Source: Uloborus diversus
Lineage: Eukaryota
Direction of reading: 5' to 3'
DNA: 64,000 nucleotides
Assembly (NCBI RefSeq): GCF_026930045.1
Contig: NC_072740.1
Coordinates: 29,620,384 to 29,684,383 of the forward strand
Positions 3,836 to 64,000 of the stretch are shown piece by piece (the first letter of the stretch is position 1; each line of letters begins with the position of its first letter). The translations under genes and the position numbers were made by a program. The notes beneath the pieces are model-generated. The model was not told the DNA's origin. It worked only from the letters and a program-made list of their open reading frames with translations, and made no database searches.

Positions 3836-3999
3836 GTAATTTCTCGAATATTAATATTTCATTGTTTATGCTTTTACTATTTTATTATGTCTTTATCATT
3901 ACATTCATGTATAATGAAACATTTGGAATAGTTCACTGCAAGCAGCTGTTACTTACAATGAGGTGAATAATTATAAGGGGGTTCTTATACTTCAATGGG

Positions 4000-4078
4000 A
4001 TTGATAATTGAGTACAAGCTGCCTAGCTGGGCCAGGAGCCTGTTGTTGATCTTTGCTTTTGTATTTGTGTTTTTATTC
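4000..4078 (+). mobile_element. very short 3'-tail fragment of the CR1-like LINE
   Basis: …gctgcctagctgggccaggagcctgttgttgatctttgcttttgtatttgtg matches the 49600-49670 tail. Confidence 0.6.
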
Positions 4079-4852: not shown

Positions 4853-4995
4853 GTCATGTCATCTGTAAGGAGAACATTCCGTCTGAACAAATTTCTTGTG
4901 TTGCCAAAAATAGTAGCTATGCCACTGATAGAGTACTGTATTCTGATTGGTTTTACACATCTGTTATTGTTGGGATGGAATCTGGAAATATAATA
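4853..4995 (+). CDS. WD40-repeat gene exon (GHVICKENIPSEQISCVAKNSSYATDRVLYSDWFYTSVIVGMESGNII)
   Basis: Acceptor ggaaacag|GT and donor ATA|gtaagc. Phase 1 in, phase 0 out. No stop codons. Confidence 0.6.
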
Positions 4996-6239: not shown

Positions 6240-6432
6240 TAAAATCAAATACAAAGACCAGCAATAGGCTATGGGCCCAGCTAGACTGGTCCTAGTCAAT
6301 TTATTGGACCCCAACAAAGATCAATAGCCCTCTTAAAGCTATCCACACCCTTTCTCATTACTGCCTCTTCCAATAAGCAGTTCCAAGTGCCCACGAGCCT
6401 ACTAAAGTAGTAATTTTTCCTAATTTCCAGTT
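6240..6432 (-). mobile_element. short 3'-terminal fragment of the CR1-like LINE
   Basis: The reverse complement of the LINE tail and last codons runs from caataggctatgggcccagctagactggtcctagtcaatttattgg… through to …taatttttcctaatttccag. Confidence 0.7.
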
Positions 6433-7059
6433 ATATTCAAGTAAATATATTTTCAAAACTCATTTTTTCCGGCATGTTTATCCTGAAAAGAAACAGGCTT
6501 GTGTTATTGAAACCGGGTGACCCTATGAATTTTGCGGGGGGTATATTGTTTACAGTATATTGTTTTCAGTTTCAGTGTCCAATTGTGTTTTATAAGTTGT
6601 CAAAGGTATTTGAACATTTAATTTGTGTGAAGTGATAGATAGAAAGTTCTTTGAAAGATTTGTTGTGTCACTATCATTCAGAGCTGTTGTTGAAAAAGAA
6701 ATATTTATTGGGTTAATGCCATGGTTGGTGGATTTTTGTTAGTCAAAACAGGTCGTTTTTGATTGCATAGTCAGCTATAATTTAAAAAATGCGAATTTAC
6801 TTGTTTATTTATTTTTGAAAAAAGGATTCAAACCAATTTTCCTTTAATTTGCCTTATAAGAATAACTAACCAAATATTTTGGGCAACTGTGTTCCCCCAC
6901 ATTTCACCTTCCTCTACAACTACAGCACTGTTCTCAGTCTTAGTTTTTAAATCTGTAATAGGGTTGGGCGATATCAAAATTTAAATGCTGCGATATATCA
7001 CTTTCAAAATATCAATATTTTCAATATTTCGATATATTTAGGTCGATAAATTCAACGTT

Positions 7060-9460
7060 TTATGGGGGAGGGGGAGACTGCAAAGCCTATTATATAAGTA
7101 TCTGCAACAGAGAAAAGCTATAAGCCATCTTGGTGAATAAATATTTTAGCAATTTATTCTAATAATATAGCTACAGCAAGGATTCTCATGTGTTTGTGTC
7201 AGAGGGGGGGGGGGATTCTGAGGCAGATTATACCACAGAGAAACGTTTGGAGAAATTACTTGAAATTACTTTAGAAGAATTTCAGTCTTTTTATTAGTGG
7301 GTTGCAATTCTTGAGGGAAAAGGGGACTTGGTAAAATTGAGGGGTGCCTTCGCAGTCGGGGGAATGGGCACCCCTAGTTAAATCATCAGCATATTAAGAT
7401 ATACTACAGAAAAACACCATTGGATTTTTATCTTGAAAAGAAAATATTCCATCGGTTTATTTGAATAATAATAGCTAAAGCAGGTGTGCTCATTGGGGGG
7501 GGGGGGGCTGGATGCTTAGTATACAATTAAAATTATCAGAGAAGTTATTTTAAAAGGAGTTTAGTCTCTTCAATAAAAGGTCGCATTTTGGGGGAAGCAC
7601 GATAAATTTGAGGGGGGAGGGAGATTTATGTGAATAATAATAGCAATATATAAGAATAATAACAGCCCATGCAGGGGGAAGGGAAGTCATGACTCAGATA
7701 GTGTCATTAAATTTTTTACAGAAGGATTTTAATCCAATAAAAAGATGATGGCGTTTTTCTTTTGTTTGGGGGGGGGGGGGGGGTGATAAAATTGAGAGGA
7801 GCCACTGCACTTGGGGAGGGAAATTGGCACCCCAGCTACATTACATACATTATAAGATCTGCAATACAGAAAAGTCATCCAATATCTTGATAAGCAAATG
7901 TTCCAGCAATTTAGACAAATAATAATAATGCCTAGAGCAGGGTACCCATTCAGTGGGGGGGGGGGGGTCTTGAAGTTGACTATGCCATTGAAAATATCAG
8001 GGAGCTTATTTTAAAAGTATTTTAGTCTCCTAAGTAGGGACTCTTGTTTTTTGGGGGGGGGTCTGGGGAGCTTGGTAAAATTAAAAATAAGGGGTCCATC
8101 GCACTTAATGGGGATTGGTAGCCCTAGCATTTTGATCTATATATTAAGATCTGCAATAAAGAGATACCTACGAAAATGTTGAAATGTAAATATTTCAGCC
8201 AAGGGCGCCCATATGCAAAATTTTAAGGGGGTGGCTCAAAAATTTTCCCCATGGTTTAGCAGAATATTTTACCCATGGAAACCGATTTCAGTACAGATTA
8301 GAGATATTAAAGTTTGACATTTTCAATAACTTATTCATTAATGGCTGGAAAAGAAATTTTTATACATTTTTGCAAAGAAAAAAGCACTAAAAGCAAGGAA
8401 GTTCTCATTTCTAGGGGGGAGGGGCTTGAGACACCCTTGCTCCCCTATATGGGCACCCTTGATTCCAGCAATTTATTCTAATGATAAAGCTGGGGTGCCC
8501 ATTTGAATGGGAGGGGGGGGGGCATGAGGCTGACAATACCACTGAAACTATCAGAGGAGTTATTTTTAAAGGATTTTTGACTCTGCACTAGAATAGCCCG
8601 TTTTTTTCGGGGGAGGGGATAACGCTCAGTACAATTGAGGGGTGTCGTCGCAATTGGGGGGATGTGCTTCCCTAACCATATTATTTGTATATTGAGATCT
8701 GCAATAGAGAGAAGCCATCGGACATTTTGAAAGCTAAATACCAAAGTAGTTTTAATAATTGCTAAAGCAGAGATATGCCCATGGGGGGGGGGAGGGGGGC
8801 ATGAGGCAGACTCTGTTCCTGAAAGAATCAGAGAGGTCATTTCAAAAGAATTTAGCCTTTTTTTGAGGATCCCGTTTTTTTTGGGGGGGGGGGTTAGGTA
8901 AAAAAGGAGGGGGGGGGGTGGTACAATGCACTTGGGGAGAATTGGCACTCCTAGCTACATGATCTGCAGTAGAGCAAAGTCACCATAAATCTTGATCCGT
9001 AAATATTTCAGTAATTTATTCAAATAATAATAGCTGAAGTATATAGAAGTGCACTTCCTTGGGGAAGGGGGGGGGGGGAGGGCATGAGACAGACTTTACT
9101 ACTGAAATAATTAATGAAGGTTTTTTAAACAGATTTCAGTCTCTTTAATGAGATGTCATGTTTATTTTTTTTTGGGGGGGGGCGCTTTGTTTTAATTGAA
9201 GAGGTCATCTTTGGGAGGGGGGACTTGGACATATATCTATGCATATCAAGATCAAACAACGTCCCTCCCCCCACTCATGTGGTGAGGGGGGTCACAAGCA
9301 CAGACAAAATTGTTGAAATTTTACAAAGGGTACTTGAAAACTTTCAAGTCTTTGCGAAACAGTTCTCATTATTGGGGAATAACATTTTTGGGGGGATTAG
9401 GAAGATGCCATGTAAACTTTCAAGGGGAGGGGGGTAACATCCATACTTAAATCATCTGCC
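7060..9460. repeat. intronic satellite-like tandem array, ~8 units of ~285 bp, each with G-homopolymer tracts
   Basis: Anchors 'gcaatttattc.aataata.agc…gggggggg…gaggcagat…ttgaggggtg.c.tcgca.t.ggg' recur at ~7151, 7445, 7900, 8465, 8745 and 9005. Confidence 0.8.
8209..8465. mobile_element. ~255-bp MITE (hAT-like) inserted in one satellite unit; TIR CAAGGG(C/T)GCCCATAT; 8-bp TSD atttcagc/attccagc
   Basis: The left end 'caagggcgcccatatg' pairs with the right end 'catatgggcacccttg'. The flanks are ATTTCAGC and ATTCCAGC. A second family copy is at 62590-62890. The other satellite units lack the insert. Confidence 0.75.
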
Positions 9461-19700: not shown

Positions 19701-20424
19701 GTGTGCTATTTAATTAAATGAATAAAGTACAGTTTTTTGAATGATCTTTGTTTATATTAGGAAATGGGCGGAGAGGTTAAAATAAATAGAGACGGATAAA
19801 AAAAAATTTAGAGGTAGATAGCCACTGAAGGTGACAATTTTTGCGTAAAAAGAGGAATGACTCAAATTGCAACTGGAAATAGGTATAGAAAATACGAAAA
19901 AGAAAGATATATATATATCAATTAATTCCGCTGTCAAATTTGTTTAAACAGCCTCTGTAGACAGCAAACTTGGAATAAAAACGGGCGGGGGGGGGGGGGG
20001 GATTTTTTTAATTCAAAGGACTTCCTTTAAATTCTTAGCACGGGCATTGCTGTGCGGGTACTGCTAGTACAATGTATCACAAAAGTGACTGCATTCTCAA
20101 ATGTAATGCTTTTTTTTTTTTATTCCTTTCTAGTAAGAGCTCTAAAGTACCTTTTTCTTTAATTTCTGAAATAGCAAAGCTGTAGTATGGTTCTCCTGCG
20201 ATATTAAAATCCATTAAATATTCATTTCACATGTTGGAAGAAATTTTTAAGTTTTAATTTTTTTTTTTTAAAGAAAGAATCTCATAAATATGGGTAGCAA
20301 TTGTTGCAAACAGTGGAGGGTCAAAAACTACACAACTTCCGAGAATTGGTTGTGCAGTTTTCAGGCCTCAAAGAAACAAACCCAAAGCTATTTTTCTTAA
20401 AACTGGAAAACTTATGAAACAAAA

Positions 20425-21570
20425 GTTTATAATACAAATATGACGACCAGCAACAGGCTCTGGGCCCAACTAGGCTGGTCCTAGTCTGTTTATTAGTCTC
20501 CAATGAAGATCAATGGCCCTCTTAAAGCTATCCACCCCCATACTCATTACCGCCTCTTCCAGTAAGCTATTCCTAGTGCCCACGATCCTACTAAAGAAGT
20601 AATTTTTCCTAATTTCCAGGTTAGCCTGAGATTTGAATAGCTTAAAATAATGACCCTTCATACTGCTTTCTGTGCAAAAATTTAACCCGTTAATATCTTT
20701 CATTTTAATAAATTTAAACACCTGAATCATGTCCCTTCTGACTTTCCTTTGCTCCAGGCCATACATATTAAGCCTATTAAGTCTGTTATAGTCTAAATTT
20801 GAAATTCCCCCTTACTGGTCTAGTAACCCTTCTTTAAACAGTTTCCAATACAGAAATATCTTTCCTGAGGTAAGGAGACCAAAACTGAACAGCAAATTTC
20901 AAGTGATGTCTTACCAAAATCCTATATAAAGGCAGAAGAACGATTTATTCGAAATAGATCTATTGATAAACCCAAGCATTCTGTTGACTTTGTTACTTGC
21001 AATGCTGCGCAATTGACTAAGCTTGAAATCTTTATTAAGATCAATAACGTTTTTTGCCTGACTAATGACCGAACCCTGTAAATAAATAATAACTCATAGG
21101 CTTATTTCCATGACCTAAGTGTAGCACTTGGCATTTCCCTACATTAGCTGCTATACCCCACTTATCCACCCACTTAGTGATATGATCAAAATCCTCTTAA
21201 AGCTGTTTTACATGTTCCTCATTTTCTACTATCCCCATAACTTAACATCATCAGCATAACAATTCATGTTTCCAGAAATATTATCATCAATGTCATTCAT
21301 AAAATTAGTAAACAAAAGAGGCCCTAAAACTGATCCCTGAGCAACCCTGCTTAAAATGTCACTCCGTTTAGAATGATTTTCCCTCACAACTACTGTTTGT
21401 TTTCTTCCAGTCAGTCAATTCCTAACCCAAAGTAAAGTTTTCCAACTTTACTTTACTGTAATGTCAATCCAAATTTACTTTATTATAGTATTTACTATAA
21501 TCAAAACATTCTTCATGCTATTACGCTTTAAAGTTTCAAATCCAAAAGTAATAAGTGTTCCAGAAGTAAC
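20425..21570 (-). mobile_element. truncated, degenerate CR1-like LINE copy (3' part), left arm of an inverted pair
   Basis: The reverse-complement 3' tail is at 20441-20520. The 98-aa ORF 20470-20766 matches the RT C-terminus. The sequence is colinear with the RT region up to ~21570. Confidence 0.75.
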
Positions 21571-22239
21571 CATTGTCATGAGGAGAAAATAACAGTAATA
21601 AACGTCATTAAAAAAATGCTTTTTCATTTATTTTTTATTTATTTCTTATTTAAGATCTTTCTTTTCAATTTAAATGGCAAAAATCATTCACATTCAGCTT
21701 TTCCATGCAGAATTCTTTGATATGTGTGCTTAATTTTTGTGTTTCTTTGAAGCCGTGAAAAAAAGAGGAAATTTCTAACTTTGATTTTTTAAGGGCAAAG
21801 GGAAAAATAAAGTATTTTTCTGATGAAGTACTCTCTATTCTATTGTAAAAAAATACTTTTGATCAAATGAATAAGTAAACTTAATGATGAATGAGCAAAT
21901 GGGAAGATAATGAAACAATAAACGAATAATTAGATTAATTAATTAATATACCATTTATTTTATGATATATTAATTAATTAATCTAATTTATTATCTCATT
22001 AATATTTCATTTATTTTTCCTCATGTATTAATTAACTAATTATTTATTTGTTAGTTTATTGTTTCTTTACCTTTTCATTTATTTTTATATACTTTTATTT
22101 GCTCATTAATTCGTTCAAAAAATTTTTTTACAATCAAATAGAAAGTATTTCATTTGAAAGATGCTTTATAAAGATATATATATATATATATCAATTTATT
22201 CCTCTGTCAAATTTGTTTAAACAGCCTCTGTAGACAGCG

Positions 22240-22880
22240 AACTTCTGGAACACTTATTATTTTTGGATTTGAAACTTTAAAGCGTAATAGCATGAAGAAT
22301 GTTTTGATTATAGTAAATACTATAATAAAGTAAATTTGGATTTACATTACAGTAAAGTAAAGTTGGAAAACTTTACTTTGGGTTAGGAATTGACTGACTG
22401 GAAGAAAACAAACAGTAGTTGTGAGGGGAAATCATTCTAAACGGAGTGACGTTTTAAGCAGGGTTGCTCAGGGATCAGTTTTAGGGCCTCTTTTGTTTAT
22501 TATTTTTATGAATGACATCAATGAAAATATTTCTGGAAGCATGAACTGTTTTGCTGCTGATGTAAAAGTCATGGGATTGTTGAAAATGAAGAACAAGTAA
22601 AACAGCTTCAAGAGGATTTAGATCATATTACTAAGTGGGTGGATAAGTGGGGTATAGCAGTTAATGTAGGGAAATGCCAAGTGCTACACTTAGGTCATGG
22701 AAATAAGCCTATGAGTTATTATTTATTTACAGGGTTCGGTCATTAGTCAGGCAAAAAACGTTATTGATCTTAATAAATCAGGATTTCAAGCTTAGTCAAC
22801 TGTGCAGCATTGCAAGTAACAAAGTCAACAGAATGCTTGGGTTTATCAATAGATCTATTTCGAATAAATCGTTCTTCTAA
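22240..22880 (+). mobile_element. truncated degenerate CR1-like LINE RT fragment, right arm of the inverted pair
   Basis: The forward sequence …caggatcagttttagggcctcttttgtttatt… is the reverse complement of 20860-21570. It encodes the RT motifs in + orientation and includes a frameshift. Confidence 0.75.
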
Positions 22881-23329
22881 GAATTTAAAGGAAGTCCTTT
22901 GAATTAAAAAAATCCCCCCCCCCCCCGCCCATTTTTTATGCCAAGTTCGCTGTCTACAGAGGCTGTTTAAACAAATTTGACAGCGGAATTAATTGATGTA
23001 TATATATATCTTTATTTTTACTTTGCCCCATAAAAAAAAGTGAACATTTTCCACTTTTTTTTTGAATTAACAATTTTCTGCCAAAATAAAAAAATAATGT
23101 TTCAATGTAAGTTTTATTATGAAATACAATGTTCTTTCTTTATGCACTGCAATTTTCAAAACAAATTTCCTATTTGTACATTTTGAAAAAGCTCTGTCAT
23201 CTTAACTATTTCACTTTGCCCCACATTCCCCTACATCAGCAGATGCATCAAGAAATAGGACTCATAATAAAAATATGAGCTGACCTCAGGCATAACATTT
23301 TGATGCCATATATGATCTAGCTGTTTATA

Positions 23330-24400
23330 CAGATACAATACAAATACAAAAGTGACGACCAGCAACAGGCTCTGGGCCCAGCTAGACTGGTCCTAGTCAA
23401 TTTACAATCCCCAGTGAAGATCAATGGCCCTCTTAAAACTATCTACTCCCTTGCTCATTACCACCTCTTCCGGTAAACTGTTCCAAGGTTCCACTACCCT
23501 GCTATAATAATAATTTTTCCTAATATCCATGTTAGCCTGAGATTTAAATAGCTTAAAACAATGACCTCTTGTCCCGTTTTCAGTGCATCAGTGCTAAACT
23601 TCAGCCCTGTAACATCTTTCATTTTAATAAATTTAAACAACTGAATCATGTCCCCTCGGTCTCTTCTTTGCTCAAGACTGTACATTTTTAACCTTCTAAG
23701 CCTGGAATCATAGTCTAAGTGAGAAAGTCCATTTATTAGCCTTGTAGCCCGCCTTTGAACCCTTTCCAATACATTAATGTCTTTCTTAAGATAAGGAGAC
23801 CAAAACTGAACAGCATACTCCAAATGAGGTCTTACCAAACTTCTATATAAGGGCAGAAGAACTTCTTTAGATTTGTTTGAAATAGATCTATTGATAAACC
23901 CAAGCATCTTATTGGCCTTGTTACTAGTAGTGCTGCACTGTTGGCTAAACTTTAAATCCTGACTTATTAAGACCCCCAGATCAGTAACTTTGTCTGCCTG
24001 ACTAATGACTGAACCTTGCAAATAATAACTTGTACACTTATTTCCATGCCCTAAATGTAGCACTTGACATTTCCCAACATTAACAGACATACCCCATTTA
24101 TCAGCCCACTCCGTAATATGATCTAGATCCTCTTGCAGCTGTTTTGCTTGTTCTTCATTATCTACAGTCCCCATAACTTTGACATCATCAGCAAAACAAT
24201 TCATGTTCCCAGAAATATTTTTGTGAATATCGTTCATAAAAACAATGAACAAAACAGGCCCTAACACTGATCCTTGAGGAACCCCGCTTAAAACCTCACT
24301 CCAATTAGAATAATATCCCCTCACTACTACCCTTTGTTTCCTACGTTTGAGGTCATTAGTTTGTTTGCCAGCATAATTTTCATATTTCCCCAATTATTTT
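23330..24400 (-). mobile_element. 5'-truncated copy of the same CR1-like LINE (RT C-terminal region plus 3' tail)
   Basis: The 299-aa minus-strand ORF 23494-24393 is near-identical to the RT segment 48463-49599 (…NCFADDVKVMG…). The reverse-complement tail sits at 23335-23420. Confidence 0.85.
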
Positions 24401-27761: not shown

Positions 27762-30462
27762 GTAAGTATGCATTTCTTAATAGGCTTAATATTTTTTCTT
27801 CTAAACATTCCACATTTTTGATTCAAACAGTTTATTTTTTTCATTTTACATTTCTATGTTATTTTTTTTATTTAGTAGTTATTTATTGTATATTCATATT
27901 TTTCATCTACTTGGTCAAAGGTGCCCAAAGTAGGTGCCACTGTTCCCTTAGTGGCATAGGGAGGGGTTAGTGATGCCGCAAAGTATGACCGGTATCAATA
28001 TACTAGTATATATACAAATGAGATAGACAAGCGTGCTGTGAAAAATTGCATTTTTTCAAAAGGTGCCGCAAATTGGAAAAGTTTAGGAATCCCTGTTTAG
28101 ATTTTAAACTTCAGTGTTTTCCTATTTATTTTAGCTAGTTATCTAAAAGCTATAATCTTTTAATTGAGGGGGAAAAAAACATGCTTAAGATTATATTCAG
28201 TGAATTACCGCCCATGCCTTGCCTTCAATCTTCAAGTTGAACCGACCCATTGCTTCGGTCACTCGTCTGGTCTGCTAATTCTATATTAGTTACCAGTTTG
28301 TTTGGCACTCTTGGCTTCCTTAAGAGGTTTTCTATCTCCAGCTCAGTCACTTTCCTATGACGGGCTGATGAGTGCTAATAAGCACGAAACTGCAGTCCTC
28401 GGCTGGAAATGACTGAGCTGGTAGTGTATTTCATGCTTAAGATTGTTAAAATTAAATTTTGCCTTTTTACAATATTGTAATACAAGCCTTGTTGGATTTC
28501 CACTCAATTGGAAGATTTATGGATTTTAAAATTTTACTCAAAAATGTTTGCTGCTTTTCTTATGTTGAATTTCTCCTTCTCTAGTTATAAATGCACAAAC
28601 TGATACAATCAGACAATCTCTAGGTATCTTATTACATTCCTTCTTCTCTACAGCTTTCACTTTTCAAACATGAACTTAAATTTAGAAGAGCTAGAATGAA
28701 GAACTTTGTTCATCACCATTTGCAGTGTTTTTCAATTTGTATGGTGGAATTATATTAACAAGTTTTTCCCCAGCTGTTTACTGTTCAATATATTGGCAAC
28801 TTCACTTTGAAATTCATTTAATTTTATCACATGCTTTTTCTTGAAGTTTCCTGGCCATGCGTTTGAAGTATGAAAATTTTTCCTAAGTCTTCCCAACATT
28901 TATCAAGCTGGAGCCTTTACCATAAATTCTAAAGTGAGAAACATTTGCAACATGGCTTTGAGCGATAGTTTCATTCTCTGCTCCATTTCTACTTTTGCTA
29001 ATTTTTCTCTTCAAATCTCCATTTTATTCAAATTATTCTTTATTTTCATCTTTTATTAAATTTGCATTTTTCCAACTATCATGTTTTTGGTTTGATATCC
29101 CATATTGTAAAATGTTTATGCATGGCACATTGCTTTATCTCAACCTCTCTTTATGTATCTTTTTTAAGTAACTAAAAGAAAACTTCCCTTTCACAGAGCA
29201 GTTGATGGGTATGTGGAGGAATGGGTCATTATGCATGACTGTGGATAGAACACAATTTCATATTGTTGTTCTCGCTCATTCATTTTCTGAGTAATAGTTC
29301 CACAAAGAGAGTGTATACAGTAAGAAGTATTTTGGCTCCCTTGCTCTGCACCCTTTCGACCTTCAAATTCAAAGACAAAGAACTGAAAATAATTCACAAC
29401 ATTGTAGTTAAGAAAGCTAGTTCCCTCACAAGACAAATAAGGAAGTATTCCATCTTGACAGGATTTTTAATCTGAAAGTAGCAAATATTCTTTTGTTTCC
29501 AATTTACGCAAATTCTGTTTCAACTCTAAGTTGTAAAACATTAATATTCACTGGGACTATTTTTTTTTTCTGTTGAAGGCTTTTTCCATTTCATAGGGGG
29601 TCTGTCCTAGACTTCACTGTAGCAATAATTAAATATTATTAATATTATTATATAAATGGAAAAATTTTTAAAGTTTTAAGTAAAACAGAATAATCATTTT
29701 ATTATTTTGTAGAATCGGTGTACATGCTAGTTATTGTTGTACATTAATGTAAAAAAAGGGAACAAAAAAAAAAAAAAAAAACTTAGAATAATTTAGTGTT
29801 TTAGGCTCATTGCATTATCACTTGTACATTTTGTACTTGAATTTTATTGATATATAAAGGAACAGTCCAGTCTAAAATTTTCGAGACAAAACTGGGTGTA
29901 ACAGCAGTCAATGGGAATTAGTAAAGATTTATGGGTCAGACTTGTTAATAGTTTTCTTCTCTGTTACTGGATTCCATTCTCAAAGCTATGACTGATTAAC
30001 ATCAATCCTCATTTTTGAAAGGAAATGCTATTCTACATTTATGCTGGGCGTAGTTCATGTCATATGGCAGTGAATATATGCATATTCAGTAGCGTACATG
30101 TCTAACCCCTCTTTGCATGGAGTTAACCCTAAAATAGAGTTTAAAAATATTTCGCTGTTTATGAAAGAAATAGACTTTATTTAGGCTGTCTTTTAATAGG
30201 AATGGTCTTTTAGTTGTTATCCAACTGCAGATGCCCCATCATCCCTCTCTACGAGCCATGTCAATATAAGGACTTATGGCTAAGAAGTGAGAATGGGCAA
30301 AGAAAGGCAATTACACATTACACATTAAATAAGCTGGATTTCAACAAATAGGACTATAGGACTACTAATGATATTGTTAAAAATGAAAAGTGTTGTAGTT
30401 GATATAATGTAAATAACAAAAACTATATGTAAATAACTATATATAATTTTTTTTTTTAAAAG

Positions 30463-44989: not shown

Positions 44990-45072
44990 CATGAAATACA
45001 CCGCCAGCTCAGTCCTTTCCACGAAACTGCAGTCCTCGGCTGGAAATAACTGAGCTGGCGGTGTATTTCATG
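44990..45072. repeat. 83-bp perfect hairpin mini-element (catgaaatacaccgccagctcagt…actgagctggcggtgtatttcatg); related partial copy at 28330-28440
   Basis: Palindromic arms by direct reading. A 12-nt direct repeat acgattcagaat lies at 44934-44945 and 45073-45084. Confidence 0.6.
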
Positions 45073-45511
45073 ACGATTCAGAATGTTCTCACTTTTGAAA
45101 TATTGCTCTACTCGTAAATGGTACAACATGTTATTAATTTTGAGACACATTCATCACATATATACAATACTGCTATAATTTTCTTACATCGACAGTATTC
45201 TCATTTAGCATAGTGCTTTTACTTAAAATTATAATTTTCATAAAGAACTCTTGAACTTATTGAGATTTACTTGCTTTTTTAAAGTGTTTTTCTATTCTGT
45301 GTAGCTAAGCCTAAATTGTGCTGATTTCTTGTTGTTAAGCCTGAGTGCTCTGTTTAGGGTGTAACTTGTTTATTTTAATTTACTGCTTGTCTTAGGATTT
45401 AGTAATATTTGTATCTTTTACTTCCAATGCTTTCTAATTCTAATAATTAGCATTATTTCTCCAATTTTGTATTTTTGTATTGACTTTTTAAGTGTACCAT
45501 TTTGAGCTAGA

Positions 45512-45970
45512 ATGGGAGTTATACGCATAATGAAGGAGGTTAAAAGTGGTAAAGGGGACAAGTGGATTTCTTGTGACCTATGTCAGATGTTCTGCTTGTT
45601 TAAGGGAAAGGATGAGTCTGAGAAGGATTTCATTTGCACAAATTGTGTTGAACTCTCAGAAATCAGAGTTAGGATGCTTACTTTGGAGGGTGAGTTAGCA
45701 TTAGGCTGTATGCGTGTAGATGGGGTAAACACTCCAGAGGGAAAGGGGGAAGTTAGCAAAAAGGATGTTGGCATTAGCTGTGTGTTAGATAGTGGGAATA
45801 TTCCAGAATTAAAGGAGGAAGTTAGTAAAAAGGATGTGGGCATTAGCTGTGTGTTAGATAGTGGGAAAATTCCAGAGGTAAAGGGGAAAGTTATTGCTGA
45901 GGCGATTGACTGGGAAACAAAGGGTATAATTTTCGGAGATTCAATGGTGCGTGAGGTGGAAACTCAATAG
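45512..45970 (+). CDS. LINE ORF1 N-terminal part: PHD/zinc-finger-like Cys cluster plus internal 60-nt tandem duplication (EVSKKDVGISCVLDSG×2)
   Basis: The ORF track translation reads WISCDLCQMFC…FICTNCVEL. A direct repeat lies at 45745-45800 and 45805-45860. Confidence 0.6.
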   Translation: MGVIRIMKEVKSGKGDKWISCDLCQMFCLFKGKDESEKDFICTNCVELSEIRVRMLTLEGELALGCMRVDGVNTPEGKGEVSKKDVGISCVLDSGNIPELKEEVSKKDVGISCVLDSGKIPEVKGKVIAEAIDWETKGIIFGDSMVREVETQ

Positions 45971-45987
45971 GCAGAGTTAGACGTAAG

Positions 45988-46416
45988 GTGGCTAGATGTT
46001 GTTTGCCAGGGGCTCGGGTGAGAGATGTAAAAAGGGTTGCTGAAAAGAAGGGGGTATTTAATAAAGAGGATGTAGTTACTTTGTGGGTGGGAACTAACGA
46101 TGTAGGCCATAGTAACAACGATGAGTTTACAAAGGAATGGGATTCCCTGTTGGACAAAGCAACCAACTGTTCGGCAAATGTCCAAGTGGTTGGTTTGCTT
46201 CCCAGGTATGGAGTGCATAGGAGTTGGTTAAACCAACGGGCTAGGTGTATGAACCTGGTACTCAAGGAAATTTGCGTTAAGCGTAGAATCAGGTTTATTG
46301 ATGTGTGGAGTAAATGTAAACGAGATTGGATTGCTAGGGATGGCCTGCATCTGAGTTCTACAGGGGTCAAAATGGTTAGTGGTTTGGTTTTAGAGGCTTC
46401 AGAATCAAAAAACTAA
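45988..46416 (+). CDS. LINE ORF1 esterase (SGNH hydrolase-like) domain, frameshifted relative to the upstream part
   Basis: The LWVGTNDV block and an NRRARCMN…DGLHLS-type C-terminus match esterase domains described for CR1-like ORF1 proteins. Confidence 0.6.
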   Translation: MARCCLPGARVRDVKRVAEKKGVFNKEDVVTLWVGTNDVGHSNNDEFTKEWDSLLDKATNCSANVQVVGLLPRYGVHRSWLNQRARCMNLVLKEICVKRRIRFIDVWSKCKRDWIARDGLHLSSTGVKMVSGLVLEASESKN

Positions 46417-46475
46417 GTTGGAATGGGGGACATGGTTTAAGGAGCAGAATTCGAAAGGGTACTAACTATTGGGAT

Positions 46476-47756
46476 TTGAGTAGAAACAGAAATAGGGTGT
46501 CCAATAAGAGTAAAGATTTTAACAGCTGGGATTCAAACAATCGTGCAGCATTAAATAAAAGTAAGATGGGCTTACTTAAGGTTTTTTATACAAATGCTCG
46601 TAGTATTAGGAACAAGATGGAAGAATTGAAAAGCATAATTATAGACGAGAGGTTGGATATTATTGGAGTTACCGAGACATGGGCTACCGAAAGTGATGAT
46701 GATTTATTATCTATTGCTGGGTATAATTTGTTTAGACAAGATAGAGTAGGTAAAAGAGGTGGTGGGGTTTTATTTTATGTCAGAGACACTTTAATTTGCA
46801 ATGAATTGGTAATTAATGATAAACCTAATGAGATTGATATGATTTGGCTGGAGTTGATTAGTAATAAGGGCAAAAAACTACGTTTAGGGAATATTTATAG
46901 GCCACCCAACTTAAGCCAGGGTGAAGACGAACAGATGTTTAGTATTATTAGTGACATTTCTAGCAAGGGGTCAGTCTTCATAATGGGAGATTTTAATTTT
47001 CCAGGAATTGATTGGAATAATTTTGACCGTAGTAATAGCAGAGAAGAGGAATTTTTGAAAGTAATTGGTGACTGTTTCTTAGATCAAATTGTAACTCAGG
47101 GTACTCAACAGGACGCGATTTTGGATCTAGTTTTCTGTGACATGGAAGGCTCTGTTCAGGGGTTATGTGTAGGGGAACACATTGGAGATAGTGACCACAA
47201 CAGTATTAGGTTTGGGATTAAATTTGATATGCACAAAGTAGAGAATTTTAGGTTTGTGCCCAATTTCAGAAATACTGACTTTGTGGCACTTCGGCAGAGT
47301 TTGAAAGCAGTTTTTTCTTCTGGATTGGACAATAGCGATGTGAATCTTCAGTGGGCAGAGTTTAAGGAAAATCTAGCGAATACGGTTAGAGATCATGTTC
47401 CTTTTAGGAGAAAAGGTGTCAACACTAAAATTTGGCCAATGTGGTTCTCCAGGGAAACTAAAGACGCTCTAAATTACAAGCAAGCTGCTTTTCATAGGTT
47501 TAGAGAAACAGGTCACAGTGCAGATAGGCTCCAGTATTGTAAGGCAACGCGTAAATTTAAGTATTTGGTACGGATTCAGAAAAGAGAGTTGGAGCAAAGA
47601 CTGGCAGATAACATAAACAGGAATCCCATGAGGTTTTTTGCATACACTAATTCGGGGAAAGTTCGAAATAGTCATATTGGGCCACTGGTTGATGAGCACG
47701 GAATTTTGATTCAGGACGATAGTGATATTGCTAATGTTCTTAATAACTTTTTTTGA
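46476..47756 (+). CDS. LINE ORF2 apurinic-like endonuclease domain plus linker (pseudogene fragment)
   Basis: A 426-aa ORF contains the EN motifs (IIGVTETW, GDFNFP, DSDHNSI). Confidence 0.75.
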   Translation: MSRNRNRVSNKSKDFNSWDSNNRAALNKSKMGLLKVFYTNARSIRNKMEELKSIIIDERLDIIGVTETWATESDDDLLSIAGYNLFRQDRVGKRGGGVLFYVRDTLICNELVINDKPNEIDMIWLELISNKGKKLRLGNIYRPPNLSQGEDEQMFSIISDISSKGSVFIMGDFNFPGIDWNNFDRSNSREEEFLKVIGDCFLDQIVTQGTQQDAILDLVFCDMEGSVQGLCVGEHIGDSDHNSIRFGIKFDMHKVENFRFVPNFRNTDFVALRQSLKAVFSSGLDNSDVNLQWAEFKENLANTVRDHVPFRRKGVNTKIWPMWFSRETKDALNYKQAAFHRFRETGHSADRLQYCKATRKFKYLVRIQKRELEQRLADNINRNPMRFFAYTNSGKVRNSHIGPLVDEHGILIQDDSDIANVLNNFF

Positions 47757-48245
47757 GTGTTTTTAACGATAACTGTATCTCAACAGTTGACACCAACAAG
47801 GCACAAGCTATAGTACAGCTTGAGGACTTTGTATTTTCCAGGGATGACGTTTTACTTCATTTGAAAAAAATTAAAGAGACTAAGGCTCCGGGGCCAGATA
47901 ATATTTATCCGAAAATTTTAGTTGAATGTGCAGAGGAATTAGCAGATGTAATCGCAAACATTTTCAATGCTTCTTATAATTCGGGGACAGTGCCAGAGGA
48001 CTGGAAGCTGGCTAACATTACACCGCTCTTCAAGAAAGGGTCTAAAGGGAGTGTGGGAAATTATAGACCTGTGAGTCTAACTTCGGTGGTTTGCAAAATT
48101 TTTGAAACATAGATGAAAATTAAGATAGTAAATTTTCTAGAGACTAATAATCTATTGACTAGTTTTCAGTACGGTTTCAGGAAAGGTAAATCTTGTGCAA
48201 CTAATTTATTACATTTCTATGACAAAGTTACCAGTGGCGTAGCTA
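47753..48245 (+). pseudogene. LINE ORF2 reverse-transcriptase N-terminal segment, truncated by the MITE insertion
   Basis: The frame …PGPDNIYPKIL…NYRPVSLTSVVCKIFE…FQYGFRKGKSCATNLLHFYDKVT then runs into the inserted element. Confidence 0.7.
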
Positions 48246-48278
48246 GACCCGACTTTCGGGGGGGGGGGGGGGGTTACT

Positions 48279-48360
<82 letters not shown>

Positions 48361-48494
48361 AATCGCTTGGAATTTTTTCCTTTTCTTCTTTTTTTTCCCT
48401 TTCTCTTCTCTCTTCTTTTTCTCTTTTTTTTTTGAGACTAACTTTTCGGGGGGGGGGGGGGTTTGTCCCCAAAACCCCCCCCCCCCCCCCCCTT
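48246..48494. mobile_element. ~250-bp non-autonomous TIR element (MITE-like) inserted into the LINE RT; carries (AT)n(GT)n and poly-G tracts; flanked by a ~10-bp TSD aaagttacca
   Basis: The left end 'cagtggcgtagctagacccgactttcgggggg…' pairs with the right end '…cccccccttagctacgcccctg' as an imperfect TIR. A direct repeat AAAGTTACCA lies at 48231-48240 and 48495-48504. The RT motif FYDKVT|TALD is continuous once the insert is removed. Confidence 0.75.
48286..48360. repeat. compound microsatellite (AT)~28(GT)~10 inside the inserted MITE
   Basis: Direct reading of the sequence. Confidence 0.95.
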
Positions 48495-49599
48495 AGCTAC
48501 GCCCCTGAAAGTTACCACGGCTTTGGACAATAAGAAGCCTGTAGATGTTGTTTACATTGATTTTCAAAAAGCTTTCGATAAGGTACCGCATGTTGCTCTA
48601 CTTAGCAAATTAGCTGATATGGGAATAGGAGGGAAAACTTTCATTTGGGTAAAAAACTGGCTGACCGGAAGGAAACAAAGAGTAGTTGTAAGGGGAAATT
48701 ATTCTAATTGGAGTGAGGTCTTAAGCGGCGTTCCTCAAGGATCAGTGTTAGGGCCTGTTTTGTTCATTGTCTTTATGAACGATATTCACAAAAATATTTC
48801 TGGGAACATGAATTGTTTTGCTGATGATGTCAAACTTATGGGGACTGTAGAAAATGAAGAACAAGCAAATCAGCTGCAAGAGGATCTAGATCATATTACA
48901 GAGTGGGCTGATAAATGGGGTATGGCTGTTAATGTTGGGAAATGTCAAGTGCTACATTTAGGGCATGGAAATAAGTGTACAAGTTATTATTTGCAAGGTT
49001 CAGTCATTAGTCAGGCAGACAAAGTTACTGATCTGGAGGTCTTAATAAGTCAGGATTTAAAGTTTAGCCAACAGTGCAGCATTGCTAGCAACAAAGCCAA
49101 TAAGATGCTTGGGTTTATCAATAGATCTATTTCAAATAAATCTAAAGAAGTTCTGCCCTTATATAGAAGTTTGGTAAGACCCCATTTGGAGTATGCTGTT
49201 CAGTTTTGGTCTCCTTATCTTAAGAAAGACATTAATGTATTGGAAAGGGTTCAAAGGCGGGCTACAAGGCTAATAAGTGGACTTTCCCACTTAGATTATG
49301 ATTCCAGGCTTAGAAGGCTAAAAATGTACAGTCTTGAGCAAAGAAGAGACCGAGGGGACATGATTCAACTGTTTATATTTATTAAAACGAAAGATGTTAC
49401 GGGGCTAAAGTTTAGCACTGAAAACAGGACAAGGGGTCATTGTTTTAAGCTATTTAAATCTCAGGCTAACATGGATATTACGAAAAATTATTATTTTAGC
49501 AGGGTAGTGGAACCTTGGAACAGCTTACCGGAAGAGGTGGTAATGAGCAAAGGAGTAGACAGTTTTAAGAGGGCCATTGATCTTCACTGGGGATTGTAA
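48495..49599 (+). pseudogene. LINE ORF2 reverse-transcriptase core/C-terminal segment (resumes after the insertion)
   Basis: …TTALDNKKPVDVVYIDFQKAFDKVPH…NCFADDVKLMG…; the stop codon is at 49599. Confidence 0.75.
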
Positions 49600-51559
49600 A
49601 TTGACTAGGACCAGTCTAGCTGGGCCCAGAGCCTGTTGCTGGTCGTCACTTTTGTATTTGTATTATTGGTTACTAATAGTTAAAAAAAATTAAATTAAAA
49701 GTGCTATTAAATTAGCATTCTGACCGAAGGCATTTTGTAAAAATACTTTAAACTCCCGATCATCCGAGAGCAGCTTATCTGTGACCTTTCACACTTACTT
49801 TCAGAAAAAAAAAAACGACGATTAGCTGAATGTAAATAAATGCACACATTTTAACTTAGCAAGTGCAAAATTTTCTTTTTAGACATTCTTATTGCTTTCT
49901 TCGCCCTCCCTTCCAATGTCATTAAACACTTTATTTTGGATGTTTGAAGTTACCTACTGTGATTTTTTTCAGTTCATATGCTTGCACGATTTGCACGTGT
50001 ATGTGTGTAATCTATTTGCAGTAATGAGCGATCTTTTTCTACCTTTTACATGCACTGATATCGTTTTAGCAACAGTTTTAATGTGTGCGAGTGTTATTTA
50101 TCTTTTGAAGCACTATTTGCATACACTAGCATCGTTTTTACCTGATTTGCAAACTATCTGCAATTCATTAACAATCATAAGAAAACTGGCTCAAAGACAT
50201 TGGAAGAAAATTTGAAACTATTTTGTGAAAATTAGGAGAACGAAGAAAAATAAATTGTCTCTCAGAAATAAGCCATTAACTCTTTATATCAAAAAAAAAA
50301 AAAAAAAAAAAAACTGGTGCAGAAACTAGTAGAATAAAAAATAATCACCATGATCATTAATCGGCTCTGCCGATTAATCGGGTGATTACCAATTAATCGC
50401 CCGATTATCAACAGATGATTAATTGGTAATAGGTCTCTTTGCTTATCGTAGCGATAAATTTTATTTTTTATCATAACCCATTGCACTCACTTTCTCTTGT
50501 TAAAATCGCCTATACATGCCATTGCTGTTCTTCAGAGATATCCTGAAAAATAACATAAACGAAAGCTTGTCAAAACTAGTCTACAGAATACACCCAGGCA
50601 TTGGAAGTTGTCCTCCCCCCCCCCCCCTTGAACTATTTCTTCCTTTTTATTTTTTAAAAAATACTGACTCAATTAAAGGTTTTCGATGAACAAATTATAG
50701 TATTAAAGGCACATTGAAAATTAGCTTACAAATATTGAGTATAAACACATTCATAGTGTCTAATACGAAAAATATATTATGTGTAATGAAATATCACTAT
50801 AAAGAATACTATTTTATGCCAATGCTGTTTTATCTATATATGAGGAGTTTACTTTCAAAATGGAGTATATCCACTTTTGGAAAAAAAAAAAACTTTTTTT
50901 GTTTTCAGAATCTCTAGTATACGCCCTATGGACCCAAGAATTTTTTTCTTCTCGAAGTGGTTTATATCTACTGTTAAAAAATGTGTAAACATTGGTTTAC
51001 CACCTAAATGGTGTATATCCATCCTCTTATTTCTCGCCAGGTCTTTTACAGCAAAGTAGAACTTATCCCTTATTTGCCGATATCCACTTATTCACTTTCC
51101 TATCAAAAGGGTACATACTCAAATTTGAATTTGCCACTTCCAGTTCAAAAGTAGTTCACAAATAAAATAGCTCAGCAAGGCATTGGCTGAGCATTTCCAA
51201 TCAAGCATGATACCTGTCTATATTAAGAGATCGCAGCATCTTGCGCAAGTCTGTTAAGGCAAGCGAGACCTCAAATAGTTATTACTGAATTAATATTAAA
51301 TATTTGATATTACTATTAAATTGTGATTAATCAATGATTAAATTGTGATTAATTGTAAACTATTAATGCCTTCAACGTTGTTATTTGAATCAGCTTTTGT
51401 GGTTTCATTGTTCATACTTAATTGGATCAAAGATCCTTTTTTTAAATATTCAATGAAAAGAATAAAGTAAGTAGGATAGAATAAAGTATAGTTAAAAAAA
51501 TATATATTAAAAATGTTGAATATTTTTTTCAATTTTAAAGTTTATTTCTGAAGAAAATG

Positions 51560-62589: not shown

Positions 62590-62890
62590 GCCCGCCGGCT
62601 GTATCCGCCACTGCCCATATGCAAAATTTTAAGGGGGGGGGGGGCTGAGATATTTTCCCCATGCATGGTTTAGCAAGATATTTTCCGCATAGAAACTGAT
62701 TTCAGTACAAATTTGAGTTATTAAACTTTGAAATTTTTAATAACTTATTCATTAATGGAAGAATTTTTTTTTTTTTTTTTTTTTTTGCATTTTTGCAAAG
62801 GAAAAAGTACTAAAAGCAAGGAAGTTCTAATTTCTAAGGGAGCGGTGGGCTTGAGCTCTTATTTGCCCCCTATATTGGCGCCTAAACACA
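62590..62890. mobile_element. second copy of the same MITE family (diverged TIRs, internal poly-T expansion)
   Basis: ~80% colinear with 8209-8465 (ccatatgcaaaattttaaggggg…ttccccatg…gatttcagtaca…aataacttattcattaatgg…gcatttttgcaaag…aaagcaaggaagttct…). Confidence 0.7.
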
Positions 62891-64000
62891 GATATAAAAT
62901 GGTGGACCAATTCAGGCTTGCCACGGGACATGTTGCATACCTAAACACCTACATCGTTTCAACAGTGGCGTAGCTAAGGTGGGGCGAAGGGGGCGGTCCG
63001 CCCCGGGCGGCATACTTTTGGGGGCGAGGTGAAAAAAAAATCTAAACAACGAACTCATACTTCAAATCTATTACTGGAGGAAAAAAAATTCTATGAAATA
63101 TAAGGTTTCGGTATAACTATACGACTACGCTTCTCAGTGTTCAAAGTTGAAATATTTCCGTAGTGATCCTCTGAACCTTCCTCATTCTCTTAACGTTCTC
63201 AAATATAGACTTAAATTGCATTTTTATAACGTAAATTTTGGAAAATATTTCAGAAAAGACTCCGTCTTTCTAACGTCAACAAAGGTTGAAACTGACTTCA
63301 GTTTGTTCGCCCCCCCCCCTTTCCCCAAACATCACTTTTAACTTCGATTTTTTGATGTAAATTTAAAATATTTCTCCGGGATACAGGCACGTAGCTAGAA
63401 CTTTGTTAAGGGGGGGGGTCCAAGGTTGCACGAACTTCAAAAGAGGAGGCATGCTAAAGCAGAATTAGTAGCTGATAATTACACAAGACTAAGATAAATC
63501 CAATTAAAACTGATCATTAAAATATGATAATTAATTAAAATTAATTAAATAATTGAAATTAATAGAGTCATTAGTTAAAATTAGTTAACAAAAAGTTTAT
63601 GTTAAGTGGTAAATTAATTATTGTCAGTTTGTAAATTAACATTAAACTGAAGGTTATCACATACAAAGTTTCCAAATATGGGTGAACCTTTGTCCTCCTG
63701 AAAATAAGTGATATATTTTCTATTAATAAAAAGGGCACAATAAAAGAAAAACGGAAAACGAAAACTGTTCTAGAAATTACTTGGAAAATGCATGCGATAA
63801 TTTAATAAAATATTAAAGCTTTGTAATATATTTCAACAAAATATGTACATTTGTACTTATGCCATTTTTTTTGAAAACTAGAAAGTCACCCGTCAAGGCA
63901 TGACGGGTGAAAATTGCTTCAACTCTTCTTCATTTGAACGAAGCAATTGCCTGTTTGGTGATATTTTGATAGTTGAAATTTTAACTCTAACACCAGTGCA

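Follow-up and report, generated by a model that had tools for sequence, protein, structure and literature searches.

In this study, we characterised a long interspersed nuclear element (LINE) located on the + strand of a stretch of 64,000 nt of Uloborus diversus DNA (NCBI RefSeq assembly GCF_026930045.1, contig NC_072740.1, positions 29,620,384 to 29,684,383 of the forward strand). This whole stretch is called the window, and all coordinates refer to it. We read the element as a dead, coding-complete LINE of the CR1 group (i.e. an APE-type retrotransposon without long terminal repeats, or non-LTR retrotransposon), most likely CR1 proper, whose first open reading frame (ORF) is of the esterase type ('Type IV'); we assign this reading a probability of about 0.9. 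Judged from sequence comparisons, membership of the CR1 group is proposed with high confidence and placement in CR1 proper with moderate confidence. An earlier note had described a near full-length CR1/L2-type LINE with an esterase ORF1 and an ORF2 combining endonuclease and reverse transcriptase (RT), a description borne out by Pfam matches and by an RT grouping recovered with 99% bootstrap.

A co-linear run of ORFs extends over 45.5-49.6 kb on the + strand and corresponds to a two-ORF non-LTR retrotransposon with the following parts and domains:

45073..45511, + strand: candidate 5' untranslated region (UTR), the true 5' end lying somewhere in the interval 45073-45512.
45512..46416, + strand: ORF1, 301 aa once one frameshift is repaired, with a four-Cys finger, a helix, a linker and an SGNH esterase.
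45560..45706, + strand: four-Cys finger (C21, C24, C42, C45) followed by a long helix (aa 43-65), from the alignment of relatives and an AlphaFold2 (AF2) model.
45923..46413, + strand: SGNH/GDSL esterase, with Ser (GDS, nt 45935), Gly (PGA, 46006), Asn (GTND, 46090) and Asp/His (DGLH, 46339) all intact.
46566..49599, + strand: ORF2, starting at the ATG at 46566, 916 aa once repaired, with an APE endonuclease, a linker, an RT and a C-terminal region.
46602..47210, + strand: APE-type endonuclease, with TETW, GDFN and SDH motifs (PF03372 and PF14529).
48041..49014, + strand: RT, with YIDF, PQGS and FADD motifs, split by a miniature inverted-repeat transposable element (MITE).
49600..49667, + strand: 3' UTR, comprising a conserved stem-loop followed by a (TTTGTA)n tail.

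The two ORFs are separated by a spacer of 149 nt. From the ATG of ORF1 to the tail, the element measures 3.87 kb after subtraction of the MITE and one copy of its target-site duplication (TSD), and the corresponding length is ~3.8 kb in L003, one of the related contigs introduced below. The term 'near full-length' thus holds for the coding part. The boundaries initially proposed (45100-49690) required revision at the 3' side, the end being corrected to ~49667, where the copies diverge; the start at 45100 was a guess within 45073-45512.

Pfam matches were judged against curated cut-offs (gathering scores), and the RT, APE and esterase profiles all scored above them. RVT_1 (PF00078) matched aa 493-722 of the repaired ORF2 (E=6.1e-37, 127.8 bits, cut-off 29.6), Exo_endo_phos (PF03372) matched with E=2.6e-12 (47.4 bits, cut-off 24.5) and Exo_endo_phos_2 (PF14529) with E=1.2e-10. 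Lipase_GDSL_2 (PF13472) was found on ORF1 (E=1.5e-12, 48.9 bits, cut-off 32.9). The motifs quoted in the earlier note (C-x2-C pairs, LWVGTNDV, GDFNFP, SDH and FADD) were all recovered on the + strand, with GDFNFP at nt 46986, SDH at nt 47190 and FADD at nt 48817, and the catalytic motifs of esterase, endonuclease and RT are all intact. The element therefore combines the features of APE-type LINEs: an APE domain at the N-terminus of ORF2, an RT with an xADD motif, and a common 3' end shared by 5'-truncated copies, with no terminal repeats. Self-comparison of the window revealed neither an LTR nor a terminal inverted repeat (TIR) bracketing the element.

Four contigs, hereafter L001-L004 (Logan SRR18067392 and SRR18067489; ENA ERZ27249030; JGI 3300063311), carry the closest relatives, which are CR1-like. 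The four contig proteins P0001-P0004 matched ORF2 along 100% of the ORF at 51-56% identity, and no public protein closer than 56% was found. ORF2 was 38-41% identical to proteins of Anas and Anser over 97-100% of the length (686-720 bits). Scores fell to 33-58 bits with human L1 ORF2p and R2 proteins. The ORF2 located beside a ZfL2-1-type ORF1 in Danio aesculapii aligned over the RT core only (26% over 404 aa, 120 bits). As CR1 is the dominant LINE of birds, we regard the Anas and Anser sequences (duck and goose) as CR1 ORF2s. A comparison restricted to the RT core (205 aligned columns) gave 67-72% identity with the closest relatives, 54-55% with the bird proteins, 34% with L2 and 24-26% with L1/R2, L2 being represented by the single sequence L006 (L005 being without ORF2). 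In the neighbor-joining tree, the window element grouped with P0001-P0004 at 100% bootstrap, and CR1-like sequences together with L2 were separated from human L1 and two R2 proteins at 99%. The label 'CR1/L2' thus stands, and identity values narrow it towards CR1 proper, the corresponding split in the tree being weak (51%).

Rex1 and Zenon were rejected as candidates because the element has an ORF1 and a hexamer tail in place of poly(A): both families lack ORF1, poly(A) is found within CR1s only in Zenon, and canonical CR1s carry an esterase ORF1 (PMC13343379).

At the 3' end, a stem-loop GACCAG...CTGGTC (~49609-49648) precedes the (TTTGTA)n tail (~49651-49667). The stem-loop is followed by the shared end sequence TTTGTATTTGTATT, after which all copies diverge at ~49667, and five fragments of the window stop at reference positions ~49658-49667. 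Matching stem-loops and (TTTGTA)n tails were present in the 3' UTRs of L001 and L003; L003 contains four TTTGTA units, which identifies the tail as a hexamer microsatellite instead of poly(A). Stem-loop cells were paired in 93.5% of cases, versus 26-60% when the 3' partners were slid; five pairs are altered on both sides, and the covariation score was reached by 2/500 shuffles. RNAalifold independently found the outer stem as well as an inner GGGC/GCCU stem. A hairpin followed by a microsatellite is the 3' signature of CR1, a group also known for 5' truncation (PMC4316615), and in stringent LINEs the ORF2 protein binds the cognate 3' stem-loop (PMC4176376). The arrangement found here, i.e. a microsatellite after a stem-loop with no poly(A), is that of the CR1 group (PMC4316615, PMC13343379).

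The assignment of ORF1 to the esterase type relies on its C-terminal domain. Its top PDB match was 4c1b, the esterase of ZfL2-1 ORF1p (E=1.9e-11), with an alignment running from GDS through GTND and DGLH. The catalytic Ser, Gly, Asn, Asp and His have been defined in ZfL2-1 ORF1p (PMC3905857), and all five are kept in the window ORF1. Esterase ORF1 proteins comprise a coiled coil and a linker and have lipid binding and hydrolytic activity, both activities having been demonstrated only for ZfL2-1 ORF1p (PMC3905857); Type IV ORF1s associate a zinc finger or leucine zipper with an esterase (PMC4120745). The window ORF1 agrees with this type in its SGNH catalytic set and in a predicted helix and poorly conserved linker upstream of it, and no RRM or zf-CCHC Pfam match was found in ORF1. 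The linker was poorly conserved in the alignment of relatives, and in the window copy it includes the following feature:

45694..45893, + strand: tandem duplication of ~24 aa (~73 nt) in the ORF1 linker (self-match 45694-45824 / 45767-45893, 82% identical).

This 24-aa duplication is confined to the window copy and absent from the relatives in the ORF1 alignment. Additionally, the positions equivalent to ZfL2-1 H191 and S228 are occupied by Trp and by a gap or Val, respectively, in the window copy and all close relatives (46081-46092, LWVG; ~46180-46200).

The earlier note had called ORF1 'PHD-like', a label that did not survive. In the window ORF1, the first Cys pair is CDLC (aa 21) and the second CTNC (aa 42). 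Across eight relatives, the invariant N-terminal residues are M1, K8, G13, G15, C21, C24, C42 and C45, giving the pattern C-x2-C-x(17-25)-C-x2-C with a variable C28 and no conserved His. A PHD finger (PF00628, C4HC3, eight zinc ligands) was ruled out, as just four Cys are invariant and no His is conserved; PHD gave no Pfam match in the window copy even at E<=10, and the best relative reached 20.2 bits where the cut-off is 24, its match being limited to model positions 8-47. Besides, PHD belongs to other ORF1 types than the esterase type (PMC4120745, PMC3905857). A first AF2 model of the ORF1 N-terminus, built from two sequences, had no usable fold (pLDDT 28.8). With six sequences, residues 4-61 were modelled with moderate confidence (mean pLDDT 52-79 per ten-residue block) as a beta-hairpin knuckle and a long helix starting from the second Cys pair, then disorder. 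The finger had no significant match in Pfam, PDB or fold searches: Foldseek returned the CW finger of MORC3 as best hit (E=0.89), and the finger profile retrieved from PDB mostly C2H2 noise, with PHD chains at E=0.01-0.05. On these results, the N-terminal finger would hold a single zinc with its four Cys and resemble CW/PHD fingers faintly at most. That it acts as a CW/PHD-like reader tethering the esterase ORF1p or its ribonucleoprotein (RNP) to chromatin or another partner, as a hitherto uncharacterised ORF1 domain combination restricted to a small CR1 sub-lineage (probably one from a non-vertebrate, AT-rich genome), is an idea we consider unlikely. An exhaustive HMMER search with the N-terminal ORF yielded five relevant cluster representatives in a library of 1.84 billion proteins, and a word-index search with the repaired ORF1 yielded one match only; the conserved four-Cys finger, coupled here to an esterase, is rare in public protein data.

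The window copy is dead, since it carries two frameshifts, one stop and one MITE, in agreement with the few frameshifts and single MITE reported earlier. These four lesions are:

45955..45957 (~45956), + strand: ORF1 frameshift, a 1-nt deletion just past GDSMVRE, seen by three-frame translation.
47745..47756, + strand: ORF2 frameshift, a 1-nt deletion in a T7 run (~47750; intended reading NNFF-LSVF), seen by three-frame translation and tblastn continuity.
48110..48112, + strand: premature in-frame TAG in ORF2, the flanking ORFs 47753-48112 and 48113-48496 sharing the same frame.
48232..48507, no strand assigned: non-autonomous hAT-like MITE of 276 bp inserted in the RT, with an 8-bp TSD at 48224-48231 and 48508-48515.

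Relatives read GDSMVRxxGNxVGRVK uninterrupted across the site of the ORF1 frameshift, and tblastn across the TAG site gave 97.6% identity. The TSD of the MITE is AAAGTTAC on both sides, and excision of the MITE with one TSD copy restores the frame of ORF2. The copy is thus dead but only lightly damaged. The termini of the MITE, CAGTGGCGTAGCTA / CAGGGGCGTAGCTA, match at 13/14 positions and its TIRs start with CAG. An 8-bp TSD is a hallmark of hAT elements. Following this TSD rule, together with the TIRs and the lack of coding capacity, the insertion is best described as a probable hAT-type MITE. It belongs to a real hAT-like family, because its terminal motif recurs five times in the window (0.07 expected).

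Several points weigh against the reading of the element as a CR1-group LINE, most likely CR1 proper. The split between the CR1-like set and the one L2 reference had a bootstrap value of only 51%; the references of the RT tree exclude Rex1, Crack, Daphne, Kiri, Jockey, I and RTE; and in the databases the duck and goose proteins are named no more precisely than 'reverse transcriptase domain-containing protein'. The 'transposon-specific' residues H191 and S228 of ZfL2-1 are not retained in the window lineage. The 3' stem-loop is supported but not proven, because the hairpin alone was no better than many shuffles (z=-1.35) and the covariation set consisted of seven partly related sequences. Finally, the 5' end is placed only within 45073-45512, with no defined TSD: no convincing TSD of the LINE was found, the sole candidate being a 10-mer of which ~0.13 are expected by chance. 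There is a small chance that the element belongs to the L2 superfamily (ZfL2-1-like) and not to CR1 proper, which would alter the label and leave the mechanism unchanged. Such a placement would fit the top structural match of ORF1, i.e. the ZfL2-1 esterase, and the occurrence of esterase ORF1s in CR1 and L2 alike (PMC4120745, PMC13343379), as well as the 51% support for the bipartition excluding L2. However, the PDB match is uninformative on the clade, since 4c1b and 4c1a are the sole LINE ORF1 structures cited in PMC3905857, and the RT core is only 34% identical to the ZfL2-1-type sequence, against 54-55% for the bird proteins, with which the ORF2 alignment spans 97-100% of the length (686-720 bits) instead of the RT core alone (26%, 120 bits).

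Two other explanations bear on the integrity of the element. That the window copy is functional and that its small lesions are sequencing or assembly errors is very improbable: one frameshift does lie in a T7 homopolymer, a typical error site, and the catalytic motifs are all intact, but the ORF1 frameshift is outside any homopolymer, an in-frame TAG is present at 48110, and the 276-bp insertion with terminal repeats and an 8-bp duplication splits the RT. We find it scarcely credible that a nested insertion joined the ORF1 of one element to the ORF2 of another, or that a host gene for an esterase or RT was domesticated at this locus. LINE lineages do exchange ORF1 domains, which are modular (PMC4120745), and a spacer of 149 nt separates the two ORFs here; nevertheless, the same ORF order and tight spacing recur in L001, L002 and L003 (three independent samples), L004 keeps the ORF order with a partial ORF1, and both ORFs diverge in parallel from their relatives (34-47% for ORF1 and 51-56% for ORF2). 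Inactivating lesions and multiple truncated copies speak against a host gene.

L001-L004 share with the window an ORF1 type bearing the N-terminal motif MGVI..KE..SG.G..WI.CD.C...F.C..C, at an ORF1 identity of 34-47%; the ORF1+ORF2 layout was found in L001 and L003, and a partial ORF1 in L002 and L004. They differ from the window element in being separate families (51-56% protein identity) without the 24-aa linker duplication, and the 3' UTRs of L002 and L004 are unlike that of the window. Canonical (amniote/bird) CR1s have in common with it an APE-RT ORF2, a 3' hairpin with microsatellite and heavy 5' truncation (PMC4316615), as well as an esterase-type ORF1 (PMC13343379). The tail of amniote CR1s is an octamer motif (PMC4316615), whereas that of the window is the hexamer TTTGTA; furthermore, in contrast to canonical CR1s, the host DNA is very AT-rich (~31-32% GC) and the N-terminal finger is rare. 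ZfL2-1 of zebrafish (CR1-1_DR in Repbase) was moved to L2 (PMC13343379). It resembles the window element by its helical region, poorly conserved linker and S-G-N-D-H esterase (PMC3905857), and its stringent-type ORF2 uses a 3' stem-loop (PMC4176376), a structure that the window element has too. It differs by an RT core only 34% identical, by the absence of a zinc finger in ORF1p according to Schneider et al., and by H191 and S228, in place of which the window lineage has W and no counterpart. A similar domain order was described by Metcalfe & Casane in 2014 for Type IVB ORF1s (leucine zipper, zinc finger and esterase) of CR1 subgroup 7 (PMC4120745, Table 1); this subgroup was reported as exclusively vertebrate (PMC4120745), and it was compared here by description only.

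The esterase ORF1 architecture is present in several animal phyla (PMC3905857) and, as cited in PMC4120745 and PMC3905857, was first described in 2003 by Kapitonov & Jurka. On sequence grounds, the element would represent a family unmatched beyond 56% in public proteins, the architecture itself being already known. Its main value lies in the repeat annotation of this genome, for which it supplies a reference with complete coding parts: a CR1 family that has an esterase ORF1 and whose 3' stem-loop and (TTTGTA)n tail are defined. Two points are of specialist interest, i.e. the two ZfL2-1 'transposon-specific' residues missing in an esterase lineage and the junction of an esterase with a rare, conserved four-Cys finger; neither alters known LINE biology.

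A life cycle can be proposed for this family by analogy with known LINEs. An active master copy would be transcribed from its 5' UTR into a bicistronic RNA. ORF1p would multimerise via its helical region, and its SGNH esterase may bind or hydrolyse lipids, possibly placing RNP assembly on membranes (PMC3905857). The endonuclease of ORF2p would nick target DNA, and ORF2p would recognise the cognate 3' stem-loop (PMC4176376), the (TTTGTA)n tail presumably taking part in priming. The nick would then prime reverse transcription (target-primed reverse transcription), whose poor processivity would give rise to 5'-truncated copies (PMC4316615). The copy of the window was later struck by the hAT-like MITE and three point lesions and is incapable of autonomous movement.

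The window also holds five 3' fragments of the family:

23337..24342, - strand: 5'-truncated copy of the LINE family, 95% identical.
20431..21443, - strand: older 5'-truncated copy or related subfamily, 79% identity, forming one arm of an inverted duplication.
22365..22870, + strand: duplicate of part of the 20431-21443 stretch, situated in the second arm of the inverted duplication and not an independent insertion.
6246..6433, - strand: short 3'-end fragment, 80% identity.
3990..4074, + strand: short 3'-end fragment, 78% identity.

Apart from 23337-24342, the fragments are 78-82% identical to the LINE and are either older or derived from other subfamilies. The arms of the inverted duplication are 95% identical, have the same LINE breakpoint, and their similarity extends ~124 bp into the non-LINE flank. 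Because of this common breakpoint and duplicated flank, 20431-21443 (-) and 22365-22870 (+) were counted as one insertion. The number of independent truncated insertions in the window is thus four, and the number of 3' fragments is five, where the earlier note had four truncated copies.

The idea that the family was recently active was upheld by the 95%-identical copy. The window LINE and the 23337-24342 copy have 54 coding differences, 29 of which fall on third codon positions (p=0.0016); the differing codons comprise 19 synonymous versus 14 nonsynonymous ones. Much of the divergence therefore arose in replicating, selected lineages. The family was active, under selection, while the 95%-identical copies diverged, and it was replicating in this way shortly before these copies inserted.

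Regarding the 5' end, a hairpin repeat unrelated to the LINE ends at 45072, directly upstream, so that the 5' UTR is at most 439 nt (<=439 nt). The 45073-45511 interval is T-rich and without G>C skew, the skew starting at ORF1. No second full-length copy is present within the window, two scans of public metagenome contigs gave no exact match, and 45073-45511 had no similarity with the regions upstream of ORF1 in relatives.

Several minor observations were made around these features. The hairpin repeat (44990-45072) is 84% self-complementary, one of its arms recurs at 28383-28435 with 94% identity, and it is probably another small MITE. Just upstream of ORF1, TTTGTATT-like motifs, of the same unit as the 3' tail of the LINE, occur three times at 45406-45481; they may be due to chance in AT-rich DNA, or the LINE may have inserted into a tail-like microsatellite. 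In L001, the region upstream of ORF1 (1-792) contains a motif recurring every ~170 bp (at ~216, 375, 550 and 721), which suggests tandem repeats in its 5' UTR. The MITE family has CAGKGGCGTAGCTA termini, with further motif sites at 4914-4927 (-), 62963-62976 (+) and 63384-63397 (+); the interior of the MITE consists of poly-G, (TA)n(TG)n and poly-C tracts, is of low complexity and has no coding capacity.

The inverted duplication as a whole spans 20934-21567 (-) and 22241-22878 (+), with arms of ~635 bp and a 673-bp spacer that is weakly palindromic (21807-22169). Either a segmental duplication of palindromic form or a long-TIR element carrying a captured LINE fragment could account for it. 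Around it, a repeat of ~65-78 bp is present in three copies 91-95% identical (22167-22244, 22943-23020, the latter inverted, and 19907-19971).

More generally, the window is AT-rich (GC ~30-33% in most 2-kb bins), no long ORF was found in its 64 kb outside LINE copies, an Rfam scan of the whole window gave 0 family matches, and none of seven ORF variants occurred verbatim in the protein collection; the window looks like repeat-rich, gene-poor eukaryotic DNA. A bump in GC and GC skew at 6-10 kb is due to a poly-G repeat array, and the possibility that this GC-rich block was another LINE was discarded on that basis. The array (~7200-9200) is made of diverged direct repeats (67-70% identity) and contains 11 poly-G runs (9-16 nt), each of them on the + strand; its 8207-8457 segment resembles 62613-62882, which adjoins a MITE-like terminus.

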